The position numbers were made by a program, and so were the translations under genes. Source: a bacterium (lineage in GTDB: Bacteria; UBA8248). From it: a stretch of 64,000 bases of DNA. The stretch lies in the NCBI GenBank assembly GCA_965219955.1, contig OZ244799.1:3168001-3232000 (forward strand). Reading direction: 5' to 3'. Positions 3,325 to 16,638 of this stretch are shown here, piece by piece (positions within the stretch are counted from its first letter, which is position 1; every line of letters starts with the position of its first letter). The notes beneath the pieces were generated by a model that did not search any database, was not told the origin of the DNA, and saw only the letters and a list, made by a program, of their open reading frames with translations.

Positions 3325-4455
3325 ATGAACGAACCGAATCCACTCACCAGGGCGCATCTCGACGCCTTGAAACGCGAATTCGAGGAACTGGCGCAGCGGC
3401 AGGTGGGCTATCCCTGCAACCAGAGTTTCGATTATTCGGAGTTGACGCCCTTTCTGGAATACACCCTCAACAACGTGGGCGACCCCTTTCACGACAGCAA
3501 TTTCCGCAGCAACACGCACGAGATCGAGCGCGAGGTCATCGCCCGGTTCGCCTCCCTGATGCACCTGGAACAGGAGCAGGCCTGGGGCTACGTCACCTCC
3601 GGCGGAACCGAGGGGAACATGTACGGCATCTATATGGGGCGCGAGCTGTTCCCGGACGGGGTGGTGTATTTCTCGCAGGACACGCACTACAGCGTCCTCA
3701 AGATCCTGCGCGTGCTGAACGTGCGCAACATCATGATCAAGAGTCAGGAAAACGGAGAAATCGACTACGAGGACCTCCGCGAGACCATCCGCATCCACCG
3801 CGACGCGCCGGTCATCTTCATGGCGAACATCGGCTCCACGATGAAAGGCGCCGTGGACGACGTGAGCAGGGTGCGCGGCATCCTCGACGACCTGGCCGTC
3901 ACGAACGCCTACATCCACGCGGACGCCGCCCTGAGCGGCATGATCCTGCCCTTCGTCGATGAGCCGCAGCCCTACGGCTTCGACGCCGGTTTCGACAGCG
4001 TCTCCATCAGCGGGCACAAGCTCATCGGCTGTCCGCTGCCCTGTGGCGTCGTGCTGACGAAACGCGATTACGTGGCGCGCATCGCGCGTTCGATAGAATA
4101 CGTGGGCGTGCTCGACACCACGCTGCCCGGCTCGCGCAACGCGCTGACGCCGCTCATGCTCTGGTACGCCTTCGAGCGCCTGGGGATGGAGGGATTCCGG
4201 GAGCTGGTGGCGGAAATGCTGGCGGTCGCCGAGTACGCGGTCGAGCGCTTCGGCGAGTTCGGCGTCCCCGCGTGGCGCCACAAGAACTCGGTGACGGTCG
4301 TTTTCCCGAGACCCCCGGGCGAGGTGTCGCGCAAGTGGCAGATCGCGCCGCTGGGCGACATCGCCCACATCATCACCATGCCGCACGTCACGCGCGAGAT
4401 GGTGAACGAGTTCGTCGACGACTGCGTGAAGCAAAAACACAGGCAAACGGCCTGA
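3325..4455 (+). CDS. hdcA: PLP-dependent group II decarboxylase (histidine/serine decarboxylase family)
   Basis: WGYVTSGGTEGN, DTHYSV, HADAALSG, SGHK (PLP lysine), GSRN; length matches bacterial HDC. Confidence 0.85.
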   Translation: MNEPNPLTRAHLDALKREFEELAQRQVGYPCNQSFDYSELTPFLEYTLNNVGDPFHDSNFRSNTHEIEREVIARFASLMHLEQEQAWGYVTSGGTEGNMYGIYMGRELFPDGVVYFSQDTHYSVLKILRVLNVRNIMIKSQENGEIDYEDLRETIRIHRDAPVIFMANIGSTMKGAVDDVSRVRGILDDLAVTNAYIHADAALSGMILPFVDEPQPYGFDAGFDSVSISGHKLIGCPLPCGVVLTKRDYVARIARSIEYVGVLDTTLPGSRNALTPLMLWYAFERLGMEGFRELVAEMLAVAEYAVERFGEFGVPAWRHKNSVTVVFPRPPGEVSRKWQIAPLGDIAHIITMPHVTREMVNEFVDDCVKQKHRQTA

Positions 4456-4467
4456 GGAGGATTCCGG

Positions 4468-4860
4468 ATGAACCGAATCATCATCACGGTGCGCGACGAG
4501 GTCGGCGTCATCGCGGACATCAGCAAGGCGCTCGCCGATGAGAACATCAACATCGAAGCCCTGAACACCGAGGTCGCAGGCGAGAAGGGCGTCGTCATCC
4601 TGACCACGAACGAGTCCGACCGCGCCCTGCGCGTGCTCATGAACGCGGGCTTCCGGGCGATCTCGGACGAGGCGATGATCATCAGGCTGCGCGACGAGCC
4701 GGGCGCCCTCGCCAAGGTGGCGGAGAAATTCAAGATCGCGGGCGTGAACATCCAGAGCATGCACATCCTGAACCGCCACGCCGGCTACGCGAACGTCGCC
4801 CTGACCGCGGACGACGAGGCGAAGGCCAAGGTGCTGTTAGAGGGCGAGGACGTGCTCTAA
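4468..4860 (+). CDS. Tandem ACT-domain amino-acid-binding protein
   Basis: Two ACT repeats (DEVGVIADISKALADENINIE; DEPGALAKVAEKFKIAGVNIQS); RBS GAGGAGG. Confidence 0.85.
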   Translation: MNRIIITVRDEVGVIADISKALADENINIEALNTEVAGEKGVVILTTNESDRALRVLMNAGFRAISDEAMIIRLRDEPGALAKVAEKFKIAGVNIQSMHILNRHAGYANVALTADDEAKAKVLLEGEDVL

Positions 4861-4888
4861 AAATTCCCGTAAGAGTCATTCCCGGTTT

Positions 4889-5361
4889 TGTAGTCGGTCA
4901 GGCCCCTGTGCCTGTTCGATGGAGGACAACCACAGGGGGTTGTCCCTACGGTCTCCGAATTCACCATCGGCCAGACTGCAAGTTGCCGTCATTCCGGGGC
5001 ATGCCGGAATCCAGTGGCTTCGCTTTTGTATTTGTCTTTTCTCTTTATCGTTTTTCTTGGCCCTCCTGCGATTCGGTATCCCCGTCTGCTCTGGATTCCG
5101 GCATGCGCCGGAATGACGACCAAAAACGAACGAAGGGGCAGGCATAAATCCACCCCTGTGGATGCGCACCGCTTTTGTAGGGACAGGTCGCGACCTGTCC
5201 CTGCGAGCAACAACCACGGGGGGCAGAGTGGGAAAACCGACCCAAAAGGGAAGAACACTCAAAGCGCGGCCTCAATAATTACTCTCCCCTTGAGGGGTCG
5301 AGCTTGCCGAGGATGGAAATTTGCGATGGATTTGTAGGGGCCGCTCGCGAACGGCCCCTAC
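4889..5361. repeat. Intergenic REP cluster (GTAG-type palindromes, a CGTC-type doublet at 4987-5118, a MITE end fragment at about 5280)
   Basis: CGTCATTCCGG..GCCGGAATCCA and its inverse TGGATTCCGG..CCGGAATGACG; GTAGGGGCCGCTCGCGAACGGCCCCTAC; the same families recur elsewhere in the window. Confidence 0.8.
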
Positions 5362-5385
5362 GGGCGGTATCTCCTGGCGGACGGC

Positions 5386-6255
5386 TCACCCCGCCAGGAT
5401 CAGCAACACGATTCCCGCCAGGATCACCACGCCGCCCAGCAGCGTCTCGCGGACGCGCTCGCGCTCCTTGAAGAAGACGTAGCCGATCCCGACCGCCAGG
5501 AGAATCTCGACCTGTTTCACCGATTCCACATAAGAAGTGAGCGTGAGGCGGTAGGCCTCCGCCTGGGCCAGGCTCGTGATGAAGGCGAACAGCCCCAGGG
5601 AGACGAAGCCTTTCCAGAGTTTGGGCGCGTCCTTGAAGTGCTCGGCGGATTTCCACAACGTCAGGGGCAGCACGACGAGCGACGCCGCCGCATAAGTCAT
5701 GAACGTCCCGAAAGTCGCGTCCGAGAGCACCGCCGCTTGCTTGAACGTGATCACCGAAGGCGCGTACAGCAGCGAGGCGAGCACGGTGTAGCGCATCCCC
5801 TTGTCGGTGAACAGCGCGCGGACGGGCTCGAACCAGCCGATTTTTGCGCGCGAGACGTTCAGTCCGTAGACGCCCGCGAGGGTGACGAGGATGCCCACGA
5901 GCCCCCAGGCGGAGGGCGTCTCGCCCAGCGTGATGAAAGCGAGCACCACCAGCCAGATGGTCGCGAGCTTCCACAGCGAGGTCACCACGCCCATCGAACC
6001 GTAGAGGAGCGCCTTCGAGAGCGAGAGCGTGGCCGCCGTCTGCAGGAAGCCGAAGAGGACGCAATACCACCAGAAGCCGGGCTGTATCTCGGGCATGCCC
6101 CGCATCCACACCGCGGCGGCCGCGAAGGGGAGCAGGAACGCGAACCGCCCCAGCACGTTGATGTACTCATCGAGCTTGTGGCCGATGGATTTCATCGCCG
6201 CGTTTCTGAGCACCTGCGCGAGGGCCGCTATGACGGCGAGCGTCACCCAGTCCAT
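5386..6255 (-). CDS. EamA/DMT family transporter
   Basis: About 10 hydrophobic segments in two repeats (LGETPS..., FFKER...); start MDWVTL after GGAGCAGGAC. Confidence 0.85.
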   Translation of the reverse strand: MDWVTLAVIAALAQVLRNAAMKSIGHKLDEYINVLGRFAFLLPFAAAAVWMRGMPEIQPGFWWYCVLFGFLQTAATLSLSKALLYGSMGVVTSLWKLATIWLVVLAFITLGETPSAWGLVGILVTLAGVYGLNVSRAKIGWFEPVRALFTDKGMRYTVLASLLYAPSVITFKQAAVLSDATFGTFMTYAAASLVVLPLTLWKSAEHFKDAPKLWKGFVSLGLFAFITSLAQAEAYRLTLTSYVESVKQVEILLAVGIGYVFFKERERVRETLLGGVVILAGIVLLILAG

Positions 6256-6465
6256 GTCCTGCTCCTCTGCCCCTTCCCGCGTGAAAAAACCAGGGCCATT
6301 TCTACGCGCACTTTGGGTGTAAGTCCAATAGCAGCCATGTTTCGCGAGGCCGCGCACCCAAAGCCCTCCCAAAGCGAAGCGAAATCCCTCTCCCATCTGA
6401 CACGTCGGCGCGCCGTGTGATAATCTGGCGATTGTGATTCGTTCCCCTGAAAGGAGTTTCGTCTC

Positions 6466-7494
6466 ATGATTCGCGACGACGTATTCGTATTCGACAACGT
6501 GGTGCACATGTACGACTACTCGGATGAGAACCTCGTCTCCGAGAAAAGCGAATACGACCGCCACTACCACGTGAGCAAGGTGCTCGGCAGGAGGCGGACG
6601 GCGCCCACGGACGTCTACGCGAACTGGCACCCGGTGGAGGGCTTCAAGCGCCGCTGGAGCGTGGAGGACATGGGCCGCCTCGTCTTTGAGGATTCGGGCA
6701 CCGACATGGCGATGGCGCAGGCCGTGCCCCTGTTCGATCTTTATAAAGACGGCTTCGCTCCCGTGAAGGCGCAGTACGCCTTCGCCCAGGCCTATCCCGA
6801 ACGCTGCCTGTTCTGCGGGGCCGTGGACCCGATGTACCCGAGCGTGGCCGCCGCGTGCGAGGAGATGGAGCGCCAGGTGAAGGAGTGGGGGGCCAAATCC
6901 ATCAAAATCTACAACGCCCACGTGGACGGGAAATCCTGGGCGTGCGACGACCCCGAAATCGCCTATCCCCTCTATGAGAAAGGACGCGAGCTGGGTATCG
7001 AGGTATTCCAGTTCCACAAGGGAAACCCCATCACGCGGGCGAAGCTGCGCGACCTCTCACCGCTCGACATCGAGGGCGCGGCCCTCGATTTTCCCGATCT
7101 GCTCTTCGGCGTCCACCACCTGGCGGTGCCCTATTTCGAAGAGGTCGTCTGGATGGCCAACCGCTACGAGAACGTCTTCCTCGTGCTCTCGGGCATCGGC
7201 CACACGCCGATGATCGCGCCCAGGACCTTCACCGAATGGATGGGCAGACTGCTGCGCGACGTGGGCTCCGAGCGAGTGCTCTGGGGTTCGGAGATGGCGC
7301 TCCTTGGAAACGCGAAGCCCGTCATCGAGTGGATATGGGAGATGGAGATCCCCGAATCCATGCAGGACGACTACGGCTATCCGCAGATCACCGAGCAGGA
7401 CAAGCGCAACATCCTGGGTCTCAACCAGGCGCGCATCTTCGGCGTGGACGTGGAGGCCAAGAAACGAGAGCTCTGGAACGGAGCGGCGCGATGA
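6466..7494 (+). CDS. Amidohydrolase_2 family metal-dependent hydrolase
   Basis: TIM-barrel motifs DNVVH, GAVDP, IKIY, FHKG, VHHL, WGSE, KRNILGLNQARIFG; RBS AAGGAG. Confidence 0.85.
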   Translation: MIRDDVFVFDNVVHMYDYSDENLVSEKSEYDRHYHVSKVLGRRRTAPTDVYANWHPVEGFKRRWSVEDMGRLVFEDSGTDMAMAQAVPLFDLYKDGFAPVKAQYAFAQAYPERCLFCGAVDPMYPSVAAACEEMERQVKEWGAKSIKIYNAHVDGKSWACDDPEIAYPLYEKGRELGIEVFQFHKGNPITRAKLRDLSPLDIEGAALDFPDLLFGVHHLAVPYFEEVVWMANRYENVFLVLSGIGHTPMIAPRTFTEWMGRLLRDVGSERVLWGSEMALLGNAKPVIEWIWEMEIPESMQDDYGYPQITEQDKRNILGLNQARIFGVDVEAKKRELWNGAAR

Positions 7495-7829
7495 ACGACC
7501 ACGAAGCCCTCATCACCGACGTCGAGGACATCATCGAGACGCAGATTCGCCCGCTTCTCAAGATTCACGGCGGGGGCATCACGCTCGAGCGCGTGAGCGA
7601 GAAGGGAGAAGTTTCGCTTCGCTTCGAGGGCGCGTGCCGGGGCTGCATGCTCAAGAGCGTCACCTACGCCCTGGGCGTGCGCCAGAAGCTCATGCAGCAT
7701 CCCGGCGTTACGGACGTCGCCGTCGAGGGCGTGCGCATCTCCGATCACGCCATCAAGCGGGTGGAGAAATTCTACTCCGGCTATTCGTTTTGGGTGGGGC
7801 ATCCGCTCAAAGACCAATCACCGTCTTGA
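7491..7829 (+). CDS. NifU/NfuA C-terminal domain protein (CxxC)
   Basis: IRPLLKIHGGGITL...FEGACRGC motif; ATG overlaps the amidohydrolase stop (ATGA). Confidence 0.85.
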   Translation: MNDHEALITDVEDIIETQIRPLLKIHGGGITLERVSEKGEVSLRFEGACRGCMLKSVTYALGVRQKLMQHPGVTDVAVEGVRISDHAIKRVEKFYSGYSFWVGHPLKDQSPS

Positions 7830-9115
7830 TCGCATCGCGCTACCAGACACGAAAAGACCTGCGCCTGTGGTACGGGTGGGTGATCCTCCTGGCCGTCTTC
7901 ATCATCATGACGGTGGTCATCGGCATCAGAAACTCCATCGGCGTTTTCTTCAAGGAGATATCGGGCGAGTTCGGCTGGAACCGCGCGCAGACGGCCGGCG
8001 CCTTCACCATGGGCATGCTCGGCCAGGGGCTGGTGGCTCCTTTCGCGGGATGGGTGCTCGAACGCTTCAACATGCGCTGGGTGATCGGGGCGGGAATTCT
8101 CGTGAACGGGGCGGCGCTCATCATCGGCGCCTACATCGACGCGCTCTGGCATTTTTACGCCATGTATTTTCTGCTCTCGCTCGGCTTCGCCTTCACGGCC
8201 AATCTGCCCCAGGTGCAACTGCTCGCCAACTGGTTCGTCCTGAAGCGCGGATTGGCGATGGGGTTTTCGCACGCCGCCCAGGGGCTGGCGCCCATCGTGA
8301 ACATCTTCACGCCCCTGCTCATCGCGGGCCTCGGCTGGCGGGGGAGCTACCTGGCGCTGGCGGGGATTGTTCTCCTTTTCGTATTACCATTCGCCGTGGC
8401 GCTGCTGCGCGAGCACCCCAGAGAGAAACGCACCGCGCCCGACGCGCCCTTTCTCACGTCCGAGGAGTTCTCCCGAGCGCGCGCGAGGAGCGCCGTCATC
8501 ATTCCTGTGGATAAAGAGAAAGAGACCGCCTCATTCTCTTTTTTCTTCACCCGCAGGTTCATGCTGATCGGAGGCATCTACGGCAGCATCGCCTACATCT
8601 TTACCGCCGTCCTGGTGCACCTGATCCCCCACGCGACGGACCAGGGCTTCTCCACCTCGGGGGGCGCCGCGCTATTCGCCCTCTACGGAGCGGCCCTCGT
8701 CGTGGGAAACGGGCTGAGCGCGGTATCGGACCGCATCGGGAGGCTCCCCACCTTCATGGTGGGGGTGGTGTGCGGGTTGGCCGCATGTTACCTCCTGGCC
8801 GCCTTCACGCAGGCGTCTGCCGAGTGGCGGATATACGCGGGCGCCATGGGGGTGGGCTTCGCCCTGGGATTCGTCCGGCCCACGGCGTCCTCTCTTCTGG
8901 CGGATCATTTCGCGGGGCCGGGCTTCGGCCTCGTGAACGGGTGCGCGATGATGGTCTTCTCCATCCTGGGCGCTCTCGGCCCCCTCGTGACGGGGATGCT
9001 CTTCGATGCGAGCGGGAACTATTATTCGGGTTTCCTCCTCGTGGGCTGCATGTTCATCACGGGCGCGATTTTCGTCGTGAGCCTCTCGCGCATGCCGCGG
9101 GAAGAACGCGGCTAG
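7826..9115 (+). CDS. MFS transporter (OFA/MCT-like)
   Basis: WYGWVIL, FGWNRAQT, NWFVLKRGLA, SDRIGR, about 12 TM segments; TTG start overlaps the NifU stop. Confidence 0.9.
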   Translation: MIASRYQTRKDLRLWYGWVILLAVFIIMTVVIGIRNSIGVFFKEISGEFGWNRAQTAGAFTMGMLGQGLVAPFAGWVLERFNMRWVIGAGILVNGAALIIGAYIDALWHFYAMYFLLSLGFAFTANLPQVQLLANWFVLKRGLAMGFSHAAQGLAPIVNIFTPLLIAGLGWRGSYLALAGIVLLFVLPFAVALLREHPREKRTAPDAPFLTSEEFSRARARSAVIIPVDKEKETASFSFFFTRRFMLIGGIYGSIAYIFTAVLVHLIPHATDQGFSTSGGAALFALYGAALVVGNGLSAVSDRIGRLPTFMVGVVCGLAACYLLAAFTQASAEWRIYAGAMGVGFALGFVRPTASSLLADHFAGPGFGLVNGCAMMVFSILGALGPLVTGMLFDASGNYYSGFLLVGCMFITGAIFVVSLSRMPREERG

Positions 9116-9119
9116 GACC

Positions 9120-10388
9120 ATGAACGTCATGCGGGACGAATCGCGCCTCTGGTACGGCTGGGTGGTTCTGGCCGTGGTCTTTCTCGTCATGATCTCGCTC
9201 ATCGCATTCCGCGCCACCATCGGGCCCTTCTTCAAGGAAATCTCGGGCGAGCTGGGCTGGAGCCGGGGAGCGACGGCGGCGGCTTTTTCCATCGGCATGC
9301 TGGCCCAGGCGCTCGTCTCGCCGCTGGCGGGCATCTTTTCCGATCGCTGGAGCATCCGGGCGTCGATGTCGGCGGGCGTTGTGGTGTTCGGCCTCTCCTT
9401 GCTCATCGGGAGCCAAATCACATCGCTCTGGCATTTTTACCTGATGTACATCGGCCTGTGCGCGGGCTTCGCCGCGAGCACGTGGATCGCCCAGGTGCCC
9501 ACGCTCTCGAACTGGTTCGTGAAAAAACGAGGCCTGGCCTTAGGCATTTCCAACACCTGCCAGGGCGGGGCCTTCTGCCTGAACATCGCTACGCCCTACC
9601 TCATCGCGGCCCTGGGATGGCGGATGAGCTATCTGGCGCTTGCGGGCGTGACGCTGCTCATCGTGCTCCCCGTCTGCATCATTTTTCACAGGGACCACCC
9701 ATCCGAGAAAGGCACCATCGCCGACGCTCCCTTCGTCCGCAACCTCCCGGAAGAAGGAACGCCGAAACCACAGCCTCCATCCGCCGACGAGCCGCCTGTC
9801 TCCATGTACAACCTGCCGTTTTTCTTCTTCCTGGGCTCGTTCCTGCCCATGGCCTACGCCTTCGCGGGCATGCTCGTGCATCTGGTGCCCCACGCCACCG
9901 ACCAGGGTTTCTCGCTCAAGACCGCGAGCGTGCTGTTCGCCATCTGGGGGCTCTGCCAGGTGGCGGCGAACCTCGTAAGCCCGGTCTCGGACCGGCTGGG
10001 ACGGGTGCCGACGTACCTCATCGGCAACGCGCTCGGAATCGCCTCCGCCCTCATTCTCGCCACCTACGAGAAGGGAGACCCGGAGGTCCGCTTCTACATC
10101 GGTACGATAACCAACGGCTTCGCCCTGGGCCTCATACGGCCCACCGGTTCGGCCATCCTCGCGGATTACTTCGAAGGCCCCGGCTTCGGGCGCGTGAACG
10201 GGGTGGCGATGATGGCCTTCGCCCTCTGGGGCTCGGCGGGGCCGTGGACGACGGGCGCATTGTTCGACCTGCACGGCTCCTACCTGTGGGGGCTTTCGGC
10301 CTTCGCGCTCATGTTCTTTCTCTGCGGCTTCTTCGCCGTGTTGCTCGGCTGGACGAAAAGAGATAAGAGAGGGGCATCCCCCGCCTGA
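9120..10388 (+). CDS. MFS transporter, paralogue of the upstream gene
   Basis: WYGWVVL, NWFVKKRGLA, HLVPHATDQG, SDRLGR, GPGFG shared with the upstream MFS. Confidence 0.9.
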   Translation: MNVMRDESRLWYGWVVLAVVFLVMISLIAFRATIGPFFKEISGELGWSRGATAAAFSIGMLAQALVSPLAGIFSDRWSIRASMSAGVVVFGLSLLIGSQITSLWHFYLMYIGLCAGFAASTWIAQVPTLSNWFVKKRGLALGISNTCQGGAFCLNIATPYLIAALGWRMSYLALAGVTLLIVLPVCIIFHRDHPSEKGTIADAPFVRNLPEEGTPKPQPPSADEPPVSMYNLPFFFFLGSFLPMAYAFAGMLVHLVPHATDQGFSLKTASVLFAIWGLCQVAANLVSPVSDRLGRVPTYLIGNALGIASALILATYEKGDPEVRFYIGTITNGFALGLIRPTGSAILADYFEGPGFGRVNGVAMMAFALWGSAGPWTTGALFDLHGSYLWGLSAFALMFFLCGFFAVLLGWTKRDKRGASPA

Positions 10389-10411
10389 ATCATGGAACCA
10401 CGAATTCGAGG

Positions 10412-11323
10412 ATGAGCATGGCCGTAGAAAGAGTCGACGGATTCTATTTTCACCCCACATCGCGCGAGCGCGTCCTGGCGCAGCGCCACGCGGACCCGGC
10501 CAAAACGCCCTGGACGCCGATGGCGAAACCGCTCGCCGAATGCAAGGTCACACTCGTCTCCACGGCCGGCATCTTCATGAAGGACGACGTTTCTTTCGAC
10601 TACGAAAGAGAGCGCCGCGAGGGCACCTGGGGCGACCCCACCCACCGGGAGATCCCCAAAACGGCGGGCCAGGACGACGTAGCGTATTCGCATCTGCACG
10701 TCGACACCTCGTTCATGGCCGAGGACAGGAACGTGGCCTGGCCGGTCGACATTTTCCTCGATTTCGAGAGGGAGGGAAAAATCGGCGCGCTGGCCGATAC
10801 GCTCTACTCCATCATGGGCTACATCCCGAACTTCAACCCGCTGGTGAAGCGCACGGCGCCGCTTATGATCGAGAAGATGAAAAAAGAGGGCGTGGACGCG
10901 GCCTTCCTCTACCCGGTCTGACCGCTCTGCAACCGGTCCGGCGGACTGCTTCAGCGCGAGATCGAAAAGGCGGGTATCCCCACCGTCATCATCTCCAACG
11001 TGCCCGAGACCACCGAGCGCGTCTGTGTGCCGAGAGCCGTCTTCGTCCAATACCCCTTCGGGCGGCAGTTGGGCCTCGTGAGTGACTACGCGGGCCAGCG
11101 AAAGATTTGCGAGGACATGGCCGCATTGCTCGATGAGGCGCAAGCCCCCAACGCCTACCGGCATTTGCCGTATGAGTGGCCAGAGCCGCCCGAGACCACC
11201 AAATGGCGTCCCGACGTTCCCCCGCCCATCTTCTCCGTCCGGCAGGGACAAGAGGGCGGACACAACCTGCTGGACGATTTCAAGGACGAAGAACGCGCCG
11301 CATATACGGACTCGGGGCGTTAG
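10412..11323 (+). CDS. Selenoprotein of the glycine/sarcosine/betaine/D-proline reductase B (GrdB/PrdB) family; UGA at 10919-10921 read as Sec
   Basis: Track ORFs 10412-10921 and 11000-11323 are in the same frame. Read-through gives FLYPV-U-PLCNRSGGLLQREIEKAGIPTV...VPRAV..PFG, the family's UxxC motif. N-terminal KPLAECKVTLVSTAG and DRNVAWPVD also fit. Confidence 0.88.
10923..10958 (+). promoter_or_regulatory. Putative bacterial SECIS hairpin
   Basis: Stem CGGTCC/GGACTG with a GGC loop starting at +19 after UGA; lower stem CGC.CTG.AA / TT.CAG.GCG. Confidence 0.6.
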
Positions 11324-11487
11324 CTGCGCGTTCGAGACACGCCTGCCGCCCTCCGCGCGACGTCTATAACGGGGTTGTAGAAAAGCCTCGCTTCGCTTGA
11401 GATTAACCTTCGCCTTTGCTCGTCATTCTGAGGTCAGACCTGACCAATGCGGGCCTGTTAAAAAAATCCTTGCGGGTCGGGCCAAAT

Positions 11488-11671
11488 CACTCCCCCCTTG
11501 AGGGGGAGTCGAAGAGCTAAGGGCGTAAGCCCGCAAGCGATTCGGTGGGGGGTATAATTCGGACTGGCGATAAAACGCATTTTACCCCCCACCGATTCAG
11601 CCTTCGCACAAATCGCTCGGCTTCATCGTCTGGCTTTCCCCTCGGGAAGCCAGACCCTCAAGGGGGGAGTG
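11488..11671. mobile_element. MITE-like element family A, copy 1
   Basis: Terminal inverted repeats CACTCCCCCCTTGAGGG / CCCTCAAGGGGGGAGTG with a conserved interior; carries an extra hairpin at 11629-11654. Confidence 0.8.
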
Positions 11672-11714
11672 GTTCATTCCGACGCACACGGGGTTTATCA
11701 ACAACCCAATTAAA

Positions 11715-13124
11715 CTACGCCTTCTCCAGCTTGGCGAAGTTGAGATAAAACCGCCCGTCCGCCTCCGCCCGCGAGAGCGTCTGCGCGAAGTCTTTCGATT
11801 CCACCCGGTAGATTCGCTCCTCTCCTCGCGCTCTCGAAAAATTCGTAAGCGCCTCCCCATCGAGGCCTTCGGGAGACTCTTTCCCCATCAGGGAGAGGAT
11901 GGTGGGAGCCAGGTCGATGTTGCCCGTCGGCGCGTCCATCTGCGCGCCCGCCGGGAAGGCGGGGCCTTGCGCAATCAGGAAGTTGCATAACTCATACGGA
12001 CTGCACGAACCGTGCGTTCCGCCGCTTCCCTTGTTGTTGGCCGATGAATACCCCCAGCCCGGGAGCGCGCCCTCGCGGTTCTCGCCTGCCAGGAAACCAT
12101 CGCCCCACTGAAAGCCCATGAGCAAATCCGGCGCGCGGGGTCCGCCGCAACCCGTAAGCCCCAGAGACATCGTACCCGGAAGCGCACCCTCCGCTCCTTC
12201 CCCATTTTTCGAGAACAATGGCCCCGCCCAGTCTTTCGTCCTCAAGAACGAGACCAGTTCCAGAAGTGTTTTATCCGACTCGGCGTAGAAAAGAGCGGCC
12301 CCCTCGCTGTGCGCCGCCTGCCAACTCTCCCCGCGGCCAGGGAGATCGCCAAGTTCCGCTTCCAGGTCGATCATGCCCGCCGTCGCCACGACCCCGTGGT
12401 CCGAGAACAGGAGAAGGTTCGTCTGCCTCCAGTCATCGTGTTCCGCCTGAAACCTCTCCCAAAACGCGCCGAACAGCCTGTCCACTCCTTCGAGCGCTTC
12501 GCGGTGAACCGCGCCTGCGGCGCCCTGGTGATGCTGCGTGCTGTCCGGCTCGCTCAGGTGAACCACGAGCACGGCGGGCGCGAGTTTCGGGATCGCGTAA
12601 TCGAGCGCCAGGTCGAGCGCCCACGCGCAGCGATCCAGATCGGGCTCGCCGGCAGAGGGAATTTCTCCATGTTCCTCGATTTTTTCGCGCTCCCCGGCAG
12701 GATACGCCGCAACGGGGTGAATCAGGCATGCGGCGCGGCTGGCGTTCCAGAGCCAGGCGGAGCCGCTCGACGCCGCGCTGATGATGACGCCGCCCCCGAC
12801 CGCCTCGAAAAAGGTATCCCTTAACAGCAGGCGTCCGCCCATGGCGCGCTGCCAGTCAATGAGATTCTCGTAGCTGCCCGTCGTGATGGTTTCGCCCAGT
12901 TCGCGCGAGAAGAGCGCATTGCCCGGAAGGCCGTGCTTGTCGGGGTAGACGCCGGTGGCGAGGCTCGAGACGCAAACTCTCGTCGAGGTGGGAAACGTGC
13001 TGCGGTGGTTCCGAAACCACGCGCCCCGCTTCGCCGCCGCCAGCAGATTCGGCGTTCTCTCCTCACTCAGGGCGTCCGCGCGCAGACCGTCGAACTGTAT
13101 CGCGATGACGCGAGGCGAGGGCAT
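11715..13124 (-). CDS. Alkaline phosphatase superfamily (nucleotide pyrophosphatase/phosphodiesterase-like) protein
   Basis: FDGLRAD, FPTST (Thr nucleophile), TGVYPDKHG, EPDSTQH, SDHG, THGS, NIDLAPT. Confidence 0.88.
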   Translation of the reverse strand: MPSPRVIAIQFDGLRADALSEERTPNLLAAAKRGAWFRNHRSTFPTSTRVCVSSLATGVYPDKHGLPGNALFSRELGETITTGSYENLIDWQRAMGGRLLLRDTFFEAVGGGVIISAASSGSAWLWNASRAACLIHPVAAYPAGEREKIEEHGEIPSAGEPDLDRCAWALDLALDYAIPKLAPAVLVVHLSEPDSTQHHQGAAGAVHREALEGVDRLFGAFWERFQAEHDDWRQTNLLLFSDHGVVATAGMIDLEAELGDLPGRGESWQAAHSEGAALFYAESDKTLLELVSFLRTKDWAGPLFSKNGEGAEGALPGTMSLGLTGCGGPRAPDLLMGFQWGDGFLAGENREGALPGWGYSSANNKGSGGTHGSCSPYELCNFLIAQGPAFPAGAQMDAPTGNIDLAPTILSLMGKESPEGLDGEALTNFSRARGEERIYRVESKDFAQTLSRAEADGRFYLNFAKLEKA

Positions 13125-13350: not shown

Positions 13351-14133
13351 TCAGCTGGCCTGCCCCGACGCCTGCACGGCTTCTTCGAGCTGCTCGGGCG
13401 TCAGGGGGTCGCCCACGCCGATCATCGAATCGCGCGTCACGAGCTGGAAGAGCTGCGCTTCCGTCCAGTCCTCGGTTCCCGCCGGACGCTGGGGGATGAT
13501 GAGATAGCGGCAATCCGCGTTCGAGTCGATGACGATGAGCTCCACGTCGTCGGGCGCATCGAAACCCATGTCCTTCAAGGTGCCCCTCGGGTCCGTCACG
13601 GCTTTCGAGCGATAGGGGAAACTCTTATACCAGGTGGGGGGCTGGCCGAGGATTTGCCTCGGGTAGCACGAGCAAAGCGTGCACACCACCATGTAGCGGG
13701 TCGTGTCGGTATTCTCGAGGGCCACCACGCGGTTGATGCCCGTGGTGTCAACGCCCATCTCGCCGCAGGCGGCGTCCGCGTCCGCCAGGAGCCTCTCCTT
13801 GAAGCCCTCATCCACCCAGGCGCGCGCGATGATGCGCGAACCGATGGCGGGGCTCTGGCCGTAGATCTCCTCCACCGCGCGCCGCATCTCGTCCGTCGTG
13901 AGAAGTCCCTTCTCGCGGAGGACGTTCATCAGCGCCATCATGCGCACCTGGTAGTAGTCCAGATCGTGCTCGACCTGGGCCACGGCTCCTTCGCGGTAGG
14001 CGTCGTCGGACTGCATCCGCGCGTTGTGCGCAGAAGGGTCCTGACTGTAGGTGTGGGGATGGTCGCCGTGGTGGTGAACATGTCCGCCGTTGTGGTGATC
14101 GTGAGAGTGCGCCATGGTGTGCTCCTCGCTCAC
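13351..14133 (-). CDS. Nitrile hydratase alpha / thiocyanate hydrolase gamma subunit (cobalt type)
   Basis: VVCTLCSCYPR metal-binding motif, ARAWVD..FK, RP.GTE.W, VTRDSMIGV; His-rich N-terminus. Confidence 0.92.
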   Translation of the reverse strand: MSEEHTMAHSHDHHNGGHVHHHGDHPHTYSQDPSAHNARMQSDDAYREGAVAQVEHDLDYYQVRMMALMNVLREKGLLTTDEMRRAVEEIYGQSPAIGSRIIARAWVDEGFKERLLADADAACGEMGVDTTGINRVVALENTDTTRYMVVCTLCSCYPRQILGQPPTWYKSFPYRSKAVTDPRGTLKDMGFDAPDDVELIVIDSNADCRYLIIPQRPAGTEDWTEAQLFQLVTRDSMIGVGDPLTPEQLEEAVQASGQAS

Positions 14134-14154
14134 AGGGGAGCCGGCGGATTCGTC

Positions 14155-14442
14155 CTAGACCGGCTCCAGCCAATGTTCATAAATTTCGATATAGAGTTTG
14201 TCCTGTTTTTTGCCCGCCTCGTGATCCCACAGATCGTTGATGTCGAACTCCACCCAGTAGAGTTCCCTGAGCGGCAGGCCGTCGCCGCCGTAAGCGAGAT
14301 TCTCAGGATTCTTGTATTTGCCGAAATATCGGTTGATGACGCCCGTTTTTCCCTTCACGAAATACGTCGTTCGGTGATGACCGTCGGGGTACATCTCCTT
14401 GACGCGCACCCTGTCGCCCATATGGAACCGGGTTTCCTCCAT
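14155..14442 (-). CDS. Nitrile hydratase beta C-terminal SH3-like domain (thiocyanate hydrolase alpha-like)
   Basis: RFHMGDRVRV, GHHRT..FVKGKTG, LY.V.F...DLW, EIYEHWLEP; only 95 aa. Confidence 0.88.
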   Translation of the reverse strand: MEETRFHMGDRVRVKEMYPDGHHRTTYFVKGKTGVINRYFGKYKNPENLAYGGDGLPLRELYWVEFDINDLWDHEAGKKQDKLYIEIYEHWLEPV

Positions 14443-14525
14443 CGGAACATCCCCTTTGCAGTTGAATCGACTCGAACTGGAACACTTGCCTGAATTTTAC
14501 ACCCGGAAGGCGCTTTGTCCAGCCC

Positions 14526-15542
14526 CTATACCGAAAGGCGGTACACGCGCCTGGCGTTGGTCGTGAGGATCATCTCCTGCTCGGATTCGGAGAGACGATT
14601 CAGGCCCGGAATATCCCGCGCGGGCTGGTGATATCCCATGTCCGCCGGATAGTCCGTGCCGTAGAGAATCCGCTCCGCCCCCAGCGTCTTCGCCGCGAAC
14701 TCGAAGCAGTCCGCGTTGTGGATGATGGTGTCGTAATAGAAGCGGCCGAAATACTGTTCGGGGTCTTTCGCACCGTGCATCCTGGGCTCCCTGCGCTCGC
14801 CGTAGCCGTGCTGCCAGCGGCCCCTGATCCAGGGCACGAAGCCGCCCACGTGGGAGAGATAGAACCGAAGCCCCGGGAACCTGTCCATCACGCCGCCGAA
14901 GATAAGGCACGCGACCGCAACTGTGGTGTCGAGCGGGTTGCCGATAAAATTCCTCAGGTAGAAATCCTGGAGGCGGTCGCCTCCGCCCAGCACGTTCGTG
15001 GGATGCACGAACACGGGCATATCGAGCGCCTCCGCCTTCGCCCAGAAGACGTCCAGACCCGGATCGTCGAGGTTCCTGCCCGCCACGTTCGAGGCGATCA
15101 TCACGCCCAGGTGGCCGTTCGCGCACGCGCGTTCGAGTTCCGCCGCCGCGGCTTCGGGCGCCTGGAGGGGAACGGTGGCCATGCAGGAGAATTTGTCGGG
15201 ATACTCCCTCGCCAGCGCGCTCAGGCCGTCGTTCAGCGAGGCGGCCAGTTCCCTGTTCGCCTCCGCCTCGAGCGTATAGAGCGTCATGGCGGGGCCGATG
15301 GAGAGCACCTGGTGCGCGACGCCCATCCGCTCCATGTCGGCGAAGCGGGGTTCCAACTCATAGTAAAGAGGCGTGAGCTTGTTCCTGAGTTCCGAGTCGC
15401 GCCCCAGAACCTTTCCGCGCGTGATGAGCCACTCGCCGTGCTCGTCGGCCTCTATCGACGCCGTGCGTCCGAAGCGGCCCGCGCGCACGTCCGCAATGAA
15501 CTGCTCGGGATAGATATGGGTGTGGGGATCGATCGCCGCCAT
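14526..15542 (-). CDS. Amidohydrolase_2 family (ACMSD-like decarboxylase/hydratase)
   Basis: IDPHTH, FVHP, GNPLDTT, SHVGG, YYDT, GTDYP. Confidence 0.88.
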   Translation of the reverse strand: MAAIDPHTHIYPEQFIADVRAGRFGRTASIEADEHGEWLITRGKVLGRDSELRNKLTPLYYELEPRFADMERMGVAHQVLSIGPAMTLYTLEAEANRELAASLNDGLSALAREYPDKFSCMATVPLQAPEAAAAELERACANGHLGVMIASNVAGRNLDDPGLDVFWAKAEALDMPVFVHPTNVLGGGDRLQDFYLRNFIGNPLDTTVAVACLIFGGVMDRFPGLRFYLSHVGGFVPWIRGRWQHGYGERREPRMHGAKDPEQYFGRFYYDTIIHNADCFEFAAKTLGAERILYGTDYPADMGYHQPARDIPGLNRLSESEQEMILTTNARRVYRLSV

Positions 15543-15621
15543 ATTCTTCTCTTATCTATAAAGGGAGGAGGCCCTCCCGGGCCCCCTCGCCGAAACTATC
15601 GAGCGTTTCGTCGCCGAAGCC

Positions 15622-16638
15622 TTACACGTCCAGCTTGTAGAGCTTCTTCACGTTCCCGTAGAGCATCTGTTCCTGCTCTTCCGCCGAGAAGCGCGAAAGG
15701 CCGGGAATCTCCTTCGCCCCGGCCAGATAGCCCATGTCGAAGGGATAGTCCGTACCGTAGAGAATCCTGTCCACGCCGAGCGTTTTCACGGCGAACTCGA
15801 ACGAATCCGCGTTGTGGATGATGGTGTCGTAATAAATCTTGCCGAAATACTGCTCGGGGTCCTTCGCGCCGTGCACCTTGGGCTCCCTGCGTTCGCCGTA
15901 GCCGTGCTGCCAGCGGCCCCGGATCCAGGGCACGAAGCCGCCCACGTGCGAAACCAGGAACTTGATGTTCGGGAAGCGGTCGAACACGCCGCCGAAGATG
16001 AGGCAGGCGATGGATATCGTCGTGTCCAGCGGGTTGCCGATGAAGTTTCTCAGGTAATAGTCCTTGAGCCTGTCGTTGACGCCCATGACGTCCACCGGGT
16101 GAATGAAGATCGGCACGTCGTGCTCGCACGCCTTGGCCCAGACAGCGTCGAGCGCCGGGTCGTCCAGGTTCTTGCCCGCGACGTTCGAGCCGATCTGGCA
16201 GCCAAGATGGCCGTTTTTCACCGCGCGGTCGAGTTCGGCCGCCGCGGCTTCGGGGTCCTGGAGCGGAATCTGCGCCATGCACAGGAAGCGCTCGGGATGC
16301 TCTTTCGTGAGCGCGGTGAGCGCGTCGTTCAGCGACGCGGAGAGTTCCCTGTTCAGCCCTGCGTCGAGCGCGTAGTGCGTCATGGGCGGAACGACGGAGA
16401 GAATCTGTATGTCCACGTTCTGGTTGTTGTCCATGTCGCTCAGGCGCATCTCGACGTCATAGGTTTCCTTCGGCAGCGGGTTCTTGTGAATCCGCTCCTC
16501 ACCGAGCACGGTGTTTTTCGTAACGAGTTGTTCCCAAGGGTCGCCCGCCTCGATGGTGACGGCGTCGCCGAAACGGCCCTGGCGTACGTCTTCGATGAAA
16601 CTCTCGGGAGCGATGTGGGCATGGGGGTCGATGATCAC
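15622..16638 (-). CDS. Amidohydrolase_2 family (ACMSD-like), tandem paralogue
   Basis: IDPHAH, FIHP, GNPLDTT, SHVGG, GTDYPFDMG; same length (338 aa) as its neighbour. Confidence 0.88.
   Translation of the reverse strand: MIIDPHAHIAPESFIEDVRQGRFGDAVTIEAGDPWEQLVTKNTVLGEERIHKNPLPKETYDVEMRLSDMDNNQNVDIQILSVVPPMTHYALDAGLNRELSASLNDALTALTKEHPERFLCMAQIPLQDPEAAAAELDRAVKNGHLGCQIGSNVAGKNLDDPALDAVWAKACEHDVPIFIHPVDVMGVNDRLKDYYLRNFIGNPLDTTISIACLIFGGVFDRFPNIKFLVSHVGGFVPWIRGRWQHGYGERREPKVHGAKDPEQYFGKIYYDTIIHNADSFEFAVKTLGVDRILYGTDYPFDMGYLAGAKEIPGLSRFSAEEQEQMLYGNVKKLYKLDV

Follow-up and report, generated by a model that had tools for sequence, protein, structure and literature searches.

The window analysed here is a stretch of 64,000 nucleotides (nt) from a bacterium (GTDB lineage Bacteria; UBA8248) whose genome forms a single contig of 4.28 Mb with about 62% G+C (assembly GCA_965219955.1, contig OZ244799.1); it covers positions 3,168,001-3,232,000 of that contig. 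Between positions 6466 and 11323 of the window five genes follow each other head to tail on the plus strand, encoding a variant amidohydrolase, a small NifU-like protein, two transporters of the major facilitator superfamily (MFS) and a PrdB-like selenoprotein with a selenocysteine (Sec) residue. A preliminary description of this DNA had seen in them a single selenium-dependent pathway. We explain them, with a probability of roughly 55%, as a composite and genus-specific operon, in which an old hydrolase/NifU core with its carrier was joined late by an orphan selenoprotein. The orphan UxxC 'PrdB' family itself has been catalogued since 2005; its genus-specific placement behind an uptake-plus-hydrolase unit is new.

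The five-gene block and its conserved core

The first gene (6466-7494) codes for a variant Amidohydro_2 TIM-barrel enzyme of 342 amino acids (aa; PF04909, 99.2 bits) and the second (7491-7829) for a protein of 112 aa with the Nfu/NifU C-terminal domain (PF01106, 58.7 bits). They are followed by the transporter genes MFS1 (7826-9115; MFS_1, 132 bits) and MFS2 (9120-10388; MFS_1, 140 bits) and by the gene for the orphan PrdB-like selenoprotein of 303 aa (10412-11323; TIGR04483, 129.6 bits; PF07355 (GRDB), 39.1 bits). The stop codon of the amidohydrolase gene and the start codon of the NifU-like gene overlap in ATGA, MFS1 begins with a TTG within a TTGA overlap with the NifU-like stop, and the spacers behind MFS1 and MFS2 measure 4 nt and 23 nt. 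The last spacer extends to 29 nt if the PrdB-like gene starts at its second ATG (10418), which is probably the true start, because the homologues begin with M-[AP]-x-x-[KR]-V-D and a GAGG precedes this codon by 6 nt. Open reading frame (ORF) calls and translations agree in every detail with the orientation and junctions given in the preliminary description, and Pfam and NCBIfam profile scans of the five proteins agree with its family names.

The arrangement is more than chance, because its order is kept in 21 related loci. Among 80 PrdB-like loci, listed with one genome per species, all four partner families lie upstream of the PrdB-like gene in 21, and these are exactly the loci with a PrdB-like identity of 84-96%; the other 59 have neither the amidohydrolase nor the NifU-like gene. 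PrdB-like genes with at least 84% identity to that of the window are here called W-type. The collection of genomes from the window's GTDB phylum (51 in total) includes 22 others of the same genus and 28 outside it. An orthologue of the amidohydrolase (at least 90% identity) is present in 21 of the 22 other genus genomes and the W-type gene in the same 21; the sole genome without either is 79% complete. None of the 28 genomes outside the genus has a W-type gene, the best match there reaching 74%. Neighbourhood analysis of PrdB homologues, which had been suggested as a check, thus recovers the same gene set in 21 of 80 loci, but its conservation ends at the border of the genus. Within the 21 loci some variation occurs: three (L020, L022 and L023) have a single intact MFS gene, MFS1 being absent or fragmentary, and in L022 a DNA methylase-HNH gene lies between the amidohydrolase and NifU-like genes.

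Tight and conserved within the genus, the five genes are probably co-transcribed, as earlier proposed. A sigma-70-like promoter candidate (6397-6424, plus strand; CTGACA, 16 nt, TG-GATAAT) is located about 40 nt upstream of the first gene, within the 140-180 nt that separate the amidohydrolase gene from a divergent EamA gene. It has 10 of 12 matches and an extended -10 element and is the sole such site in 4700-11900, with 1.1 expected by chance; its position fits, its count is not significant. No promoter-like site was found inside the five-gene block. Contigs from one sponge metatranscriptome run lie on the amidohydrolase gene and bridge the junctions at 7491 (7428-7550), 7826 (7787-7922) and 10388/10412, between MFS2 and the PrdB-like gene (10311-10473); no contig covers 6200-6561, and stretches such as 8915-10181 are also without cover, to which no weight as evidence is given. 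The sequencing runs sharing words with the window are mostly labelled as sponge, coral or marine metagenomes. A regulator in the apparent 1.6-kb gap upstream of the block (4860-6466) was considered and rejected, as the divergent EamA-type transporter gene lies there. This EamA/DMT gene (5386-6329, minus strand) has its first 25 or so residues in another frame, with an apparent frameshift near 6258-6285.

A metagenome scan with the amidohydrolase alignment delivered 80 loci with 48-97% amidohydrolase identity. The NifU-like gene stands directly 3' of the amidohydrolase gene and on the same strand in 73 of them, at a distance from the amidohydrolase match of 0-146 nt in 72 loci and of 882 nt in one. 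Four of the seven loci without it end within 132 nt, which leaves three real misses among 76 assessable loci. A related MFS gene occurs in seven of the 80 loci and a PrdB-like gene in two, both with 97% identity and thus from the window's genus, so that 71 of the 73 paired loci are without any PrdB-like gene. The pair is also found in Shinella zoogloeoides, where an annotated 'amidohydrolase family protein' and 'NifU family protein' overlap by 4 nt, and in Ensifer (by tblastn); in Thermomicrobium roseum an FeS_assembly_P protein overlaps the amidohydrolase. Its neighbours in the metagenome loci include SDR (16 loci), RidA (12), FAA-hydrolase (11), GntR/FCD regulators (10 and 8), sugar-type MFS (6) and HpcH aldolase (6), a setting that has the flavour of organic-acid catabolism. 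No description of the amidohydrolase-NifU pairing was found in a full-text literature search, and the module is apparently new and undescribed.

A sister genus (L131-L133), whose genomes measure about 2 Mb at 36% G+C, carries the amidohydrolase (75% identical), the NifU-like protein (61-62%) and one MFS, followed by nitrile-hydratase-like alpha and beta genes, two Amidohydro_2 genes and genes for an Ig_CycH protein and a PfkB kinase, convergent as in the window. Neither a PrdB-like gene nor a phosphodiesterase gene lies between the MFS gene and the convergent set of this genus; relative to it, the PrdB-like and phosphodiesterase genes of the window sit precisely in the space where two conserved sets of genes converge. 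In a genome of another family only the amidohydrolase and NifU-like genes are present. MFS2 is the counterpart of the sister genus' single MFS and MFS1 an extra paralogue, because MFS2 has the higher identity to it (48-50% versus 40-41%). Judged from these comparisons, the stable functional unit appears to be the amidohydrolase with the NifU-like protein; an MFS would have joined at the level of the family, and MFS1 and the PrdB-like gene would be additions at the level of the genus.

The AlphaFold2 (AF2) model of the amidohydrolase is a TIM barrel with a predicted local distance difference test (pLDDT) value of 91.3. Foldseek searches with this model gave E values from 1e-12 to 1e-9. The best match in the PDB is the uncharacterised protein BB4693 (3irs), with a template modelling (TM) score of 0.81 on the target, followed by non-oxidative aromatic decarboxylases, the hydratase LigJ and LigY, at 13-18% identity. 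Profile score and barrel fold both place the enzyme in Amidohydro_2 (PF04909). The canonical metal ligands of this family are an HxH motif on strand 1 and an Asp on strand 8. Here D10-x3-H14 replaces the HxH motif and E276 the usual strand-8 Asp, so the canonical ligand set is not present; in an alignment the subfamily shows FDNVVHMYD and WGSE, in contrast to DPHTHI and GTDYP in the window's two canonical paralogues. D10, H14, C117, C160, D161, D162, H184, H217, H218 and E276 are invariant in 20 homologues, and the subfamily has 64 invariant columns in these 20 sequences, whose identity goes down to 49%. Compared with the known members of PF04909/COG2159 (gamma-resorcylate and 5-carboxyvanillate decarboxylases, LigJ, LigY and BB4693), the enzyme shares the TIM-barrel fold according to its model and differs in the D-x3-H motif, the strand-8 Glu and the NifU-like gene that nearly always stands behind its own. 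An iron-sulfur (Fe-S) cluster in the amidohydrolase itself was considered and dropped, as C117 and C160 are replaced in Shinella, despite its NifU partner, and C160 is replaced in Thermomicrobium. A further paralogue in the genome, 67% identical to the amidohydrolase (L135, G000:C1:2118033-2119040), has no NifU-like gene by tblastn and a creatinase/M24 peptidase gene nearby.

In the NifU-like protein both the PF01106 domain and the CxxC motif are recognised at the sequence level; C49 and C52 of its GACxGC motif are invariant in 20 homologues, and it has a conserved YxGYSFWV tail. Domain and GACxGC motif are shared with the Nfu/NifU C-terminal Fe-S carriers such as NfuA (PF01106), but the NfuA scores reach only 43.9 bits versus cut-offs of 268-269 bits, and the protein differs in being a stand-alone domain of 112 aa, in its tail and in the tie of its gene to an amidohydrolase gene and not to Fe-S assembly genes. 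A complex prediction for the amidohydrolase and the NifU-like protein, made without controls, gave scores of 0.18 and 0.03 versus a mark of 0.32, which speaks neither for binding nor against it.

MFS1 and MFS2 are 48% identical to each other. In NCBIfam they score best as L-lactate, monocarboxylate and oxalate:formate carriers, in each case under the cut-off (for NF049980, 95.7 and 111.1 bits versus 320). Neither protein reaches TIGR00890, TIGR00892 or NF049980, and both pass the general MFS_1 profile.

The selenoprotein and its relatives

The last gene contains an in-frame TGA (10919-10921, plus strand) within V-U-P-L-C; translated as U, it gives a UPLC motif formed by Sec170 and Cys173. Among the 80 PrdB-like loci a TGA with an open frame beyond it is found in 65 distinct sequences, Cys stands in for Sec in four deltaproteobacterial loci, and the motif U/C-P-x-C-x-R-S is kept in every locus that could be read through. 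A hairpin resembling a selenocysteine insertion sequence (SECIS), with a stem of 7 base pairs and a G-first triloop, begins 14 nt 3' of the UGA (10933-10949, plus strand). RNAalifold, applied to 25 diverse sequences, finds both-sided, pair-keeping changes at three of its seven pairs (GC/CG in 10 and 9 sequences; CG->AU and GC->AU in 2 each). The single-sequence fold of the region has -29 kcal/mol with a z-score of merely -1.4, and the region is also coding, so that the protein contributes part of the conservation. Since an Rfam scan of the whole window at gathering thresholds returned no family, the SECIS was judged from our own alignment. The genome encodes tRNA-Sec, SelA, SelB and SelD; with the in-frame UGA and the downstream hairpin, all features of a bacterial selenoprotein gene are present, and the UGA is a genuine Sec codon. 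The SelD gene of the genome (G000:C1:2942487-2943449) has an in-frame TGA itself and thus codes for a Sec-containing SelD.

The AF2 model of the PrdB-like protein (pLDDT 89.8) has a strand at residues 163-167 and a helix at 173-186, and places Sec170 in the predicted turn from strand to helix and Cys173 at the first turn of the helix. Such a strand-turn-helix placement is typical for redox-active CxxC/UxxC sites. A PDB sequence search with the protein gave no match at E <= 0.01, a Foldseek search of the PDB with the model nothing at E <= 0.001, and a wide VIA-align search with the model generic Rossmann/SDR/LacI-like rows only, with a best Z of 7.8.

On the PrdB profile TIGR04483 the protein scores 129.6 bits, below the equivalog cut-off of 300, and matches model positions 18-234 of 238; the UxxC motif of that family is present as U170-P-L-C173. 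The score on TIGR01918 (59.4 bits) lies below the subfamily cut-off of 65.45. PF07355 is reached with 39.1 bits (gathering threshold 22 bits), covering only the C-terminal profile positions 215-344 of 347. The protein thus lacks the first two thirds of GrdB, an N-terminal part of about 215 residues in full-length protein B; the genome's true GrdB-family gene scores 338.7 bits. With PrdB of the D-proline reductases of Clostridium sticklandii and Clostridioides difficile the protein is homologous over the entire PrdB length and shares the Sec in UxxC; it differs in being longer, by about 31 residues at the N-terminus and about 47 at the C-terminus, and in the absence of prd neighbours.

Judged by tabulated features, the gene belongs to the orphan marine 'PrdB' family, with which it shares the pfam07355-type domain, the UxxC motif, mostly Sec-containing forms and the lack of Prd partners. 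The published counts are 42 such genes in the Sargasso Sea and 235 in the Global Ocean Sampling (GOS) data (Zhang, Fomenko and Gladyshev 2005, PMC1088965; Zhang and Gladyshev 2008, PMC2398784). In their relevant parts both surveys list the family as 'proline reductase PrdB' without gene context, whereas the gene described here stands in a genus-specific operon. Recent reviews, in the passages concerned, list the orphan PrdB selenoprotein simply as D-proline reductase.

The family occurs in several gene contexts. A DinB/MDMPI_N + SCP2 protein is encoded directly upstream in 27 PrdB-like loci with 35-70% G+C, and, judged from this neighbourhood, appears to be the partner candidate with the widest conservation for the orphan selenoproteins. 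One subgroup has SDR and Zn-ADH genes upstream, two loci (L024 and L025) have creatininase, alpha/beta-hydrolase and cyclase genes beside the PrdB-like gene, and other neighbours are MBL, deaminase, rhodanese, AFOR, DUF1847 and DUF362. A FastTree tree of 77 sequences, rooted with the C-terminal part of the genome's own GrdB, shows a monophyletic W clade as sister to the copies behind the creatininase/hydrolase and SDR/ADH genes; the W clade and its sisters are nested among clades with a DinB-type neighbour. Because of this nested position the W-type gene looks like a duplicate that moved.

Two further short PrdB-like Sec genes are present in the genome, with 64% identity (paralogue A) and 39-41% identity (paralogue C). 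The older paralogue A (G000:C1:3740466-3741347) is always preceded by a gene for a DinB/MDMPI_N (TIGR03083) + SCP2 protein of 276-315 aa (27 loci, for example L062:8156-8986). Paralogue C (G000:C1:3398679-3399374, minus strand) has a UGLC motif, and some of its relatives have another in-frame TGA close to the C-terminus.

A grd-type cluster (G000:C1:1271580-1277033, L220) lies 1.9 Mb away from the operon and consists of a cyclase-like gene, a GrdC-beta gene (577 bits), a grdA gene with TGA, a gene for a GrdE/G-like proprotein and a GrdB-family gene; no GrdD was seen among the ORFs scanned. The only matches of the genome to PF09338 and PF04723 are located there, at 1.27 Mb. No PrdA is encoded in the genome, the sole PF09338 match being the GrdE-like gene at 1.2745 Mb beside grdB, whose product scores 27.4 bits on the PrdA profile TIGR04480 (cut-off 700) and hence does not qualify as a PrdA partner. 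GrdA (PF04723) is found in 35 of the 51 genomes of the phylum. In seven of the 22 other genus genomes no GrdA was found; six of these seven carry the W-type gene, and four of them (G023, G025, G033 and G034) are 98-100% complete. Because the W-type gene is present in such genomes, the grd cluster does not explain the selenoprotein, and in this genomic test the protein does not behave as one that works with GrdA and GrdC.

Most statements of the preliminary description on this gene are therefore borne out: the UGA in the UxxC motif is real, the window holds no PrdA, GrdE or GrdA, and the product is a stand-alone relative of PrdB and GrdB. A complete prd or grd system elsewhere in the genome, named there as a possible explanation of the selenoprotein, turned out not to account for it.

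Proposed function and alternative explanations

As a composite operon the locus would be built as follows. Its core would be an old and widespread pair of a variant Amidohydro_2 enzyme and a small Nfu-type CxxC protein, encoded by overlapping or abutting genes, the small protein presumably serving as dedicated partner of the enzyme, either as a subunit or as a metal/Fe-S maturation factor. The module would have gained an MFS of the oxalate:formate/monocarboxylate type in this bacterial family, and this carrier would have been duplicated in the genus. The most likely task of core and carrier would be the uptake of a small organic acid, followed by its hydrolysis, decarboxylation or hydration. 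The ancestor of the genus would have received at this place, 23-29 nt downstream of the final carrier gene, a duplicate of the orphan 'PrdB' gene, which would now be co-expressed with the module.

The literature turned up by a search on PrdB- and GrdB-like proteins concerns fluoroacetate reduction. Protein B of the glycine, proline and fluoroacetate reductases suggests a mechanism by analogy, in which an activated carbon or an S/Se bond would be attacked by Sec170 and the adduct resolved by Cys173, after which a thiol system would re-reduce the selenenyl-sulfide. The PrdB-like protein would be a Sec/Cys (UxxC) redox enzyme working on its own, without GrdA and without a pyruvoyl partner of the PrdA/GrdE kind. 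Adjacency at the level of the genus alone makes it possible that the Sec protein and the hydrolase module are functionally linked, and the chance of a true metabolic link is put at about one in three.

Several points weigh against this explanation. The metatranscriptome contigs cannot prove a single transcript, and the library may hold DNA. In two loci (L065 and L070) glyoxalase, polysaccharide deacetylase and CMD genes lie on the minus strand between MFS2 and the PrdB-like gene, so that co-transcription does not hold throughout. In L065, L066 and L070, 1-nt deletions in homopolymer runs at codons 158, 190 and 196 interrupt the PrdB-like frame; they may be long-read assembly errors or signs of gene decay. 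Conservation within one genus reflects shared ancestry as much as selection, and the 21 genomes are not independent. We infer the partner role of the NifU-like protein from the company of its gene. Among solved structures the Sec protein has no closer resemblance than a generic Rossmann-like fold, so that its chemistry is drawn from analogy alone.

That all five genes form one integrated selenium-dependent pathway, in which a compound is imported, hydrolysed and reductively cleaved by the Sec protein with the NifU-like protein as redox or Fe-S partner, was the proposal of the preliminary description, and we regard it as unlikely. Its first element, a tight block conserved in the genus, stands: the junctions are close, and the amidohydrolase orthologue and the W-type gene strictly co-occur in 21 of 22 genus genomes. 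Sister PrdB-like copies are also located at the 3' end of creatininase/hydrolase/cyclase and SDR/ADH operons, and a precedent exists in farACEB of Cloacibacillus porcorum, where an oxalate:formate-type MFS and a selenoprotein of the protein B family share one operon (PMC10838667). For that system an attack of Sec on the carbon adjoining the carboxylate has been proposed, with no Schiff base required (PMC10838667). In addition, farACEB codes for the GrdE-like FarE, for a radical SAM protein and for FarB, a GrdB-like protein of full length, and it depends on the glycine reductase system, whereas the operon described here has neither a GrdE-like nor a radical SAM gene, its protein B relative is short, and GrdA appears dispensable by genome comparison.

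The combination of the five genes into one pathway does not fare as well as the block itself. The Sec gene is a late add-on, and the sister genus keeps module and synteny without it; 59 of 80 PrdB-like loci have neither of the two core genes, and two related loci interpose three opposite-strand genes before the Sec gene. A partnership of NifU-like protein and selenoprotein is not supported, since the NifU-like gene travels with the amidohydrolase gene in 73 of 80 loci, 71 of them free of any PrdB-like gene, which itself occurs in merely two of the 80.

It is improbable to the same degree that the PrdB-like protein is an unrelated passenger, namely a general Sec thiol/redox protein in a convergent gap that is expressed by read-through transcription and whose partner, if any, is the DinB/MDMPI-type thiol-dependent enzyme. 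The most widely conserved neighbour of the family, the DinB/MDMPI_N + SCP2 protein of the 27 loci with 35-70% G+C, would fit this, as would the exact filling of the gap between the convergent sets of the sister genus by the PrdB-like and phosphodiesterase genes and the great diversity of the other family contexts, from MBL and deaminase to rhodanese, AFOR, DUF1847 and DUF362. An unrelated passenger would, however, hardly be expected to keep, in nearly all genus genomes, its place, its Sec codon and a spacer of 23-29 nt that is too short for a separate promoter.

That the short PrdB-like protein is an alternative substrate-specific 'protein B' feeding the GrdA/GrdC of the 1.27 Mb cluster is highly improbable: grdC-beta, grdA (TGA), GrdE/G-like and GrdB-family genes do stand together there, and several protein B sets per reductase have been described (in the relevant part of PMC10838667), but GrdA was not found in seven of 22 genus genomes, six of them carriers of the W-type gene and four of these 98-100% complete, the N-terminal two thirds of GrdB are lacking, and the Sargasso Sea count gives 42 'PrdB' selenoprotein genes versus one GrdA (tabulated in PMC1088965).

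Neighbouring genes and biological meaning

Upstream of the block genes for a PLP-dependent decarboxylase and an ACT-domain protein (3325-4860, plus strand) are present, which recur in 12 and 10 related loci. Convergent to the operon are nitrile-hydratase-like alpha and beta genes (13351-16638, minus strand), the alpha protein having a VCTLCSC motif and a His-rich N-terminus; they adjoin two canonical Amidohydro_2 genes in an order that recurs, with 53-82% identity, in the sister genus of 36% G+C. A repeat of about 190 base pairs (11484-11680) separates the PrdB-like gene from the phosphodiesterase gene; the genome has about 150-170 copies of it, and in a sponge metagenome run it reaches a depth of 3788 versus roughly 80 on the genes.

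By the counts of 2005 and 2008 the orphan 'PrdB' selenoproteins are among the most abundant marine selenoproteins, and for their function the locus gives testable contexts, though no solution. According to the genome comparison the protein can do without GrdA and PrdA, and the textbook Stickland roles are thereby ruled out. The contexts on offer are the gene fixed behind an uptake-plus-hydrolase unit, the sister copies with creatininase/hydrolase and SDR/ADH genes, and the older copy beside a DinB/MDMPI-type enzyme. As a tentative and rather speculative extension, the orphan 'PrdB' selenoproteins might be self-sufficient reductases, in need of neither GrdA nor a pyruvoyl partner, that reductively cleave a carbon-heteroatom bond beside a carboxylate; in this phylum at least three different catabolic operons would have taken up duplicates of them as their final step, here in a selenium-dependent pathway for an imported organic acid with a two-component amidohydrolase/NifU-like enzyme. 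The amidohydrolase-NifU pair itself spans Nitrospinota-like sponge symbionts, rhizobia and soil metagenomes; if the proposed partnership is true, it would be unusual for an enzyme of a TIM-barrel hydrolase family to have an Nfu-type partner dedicated to it.

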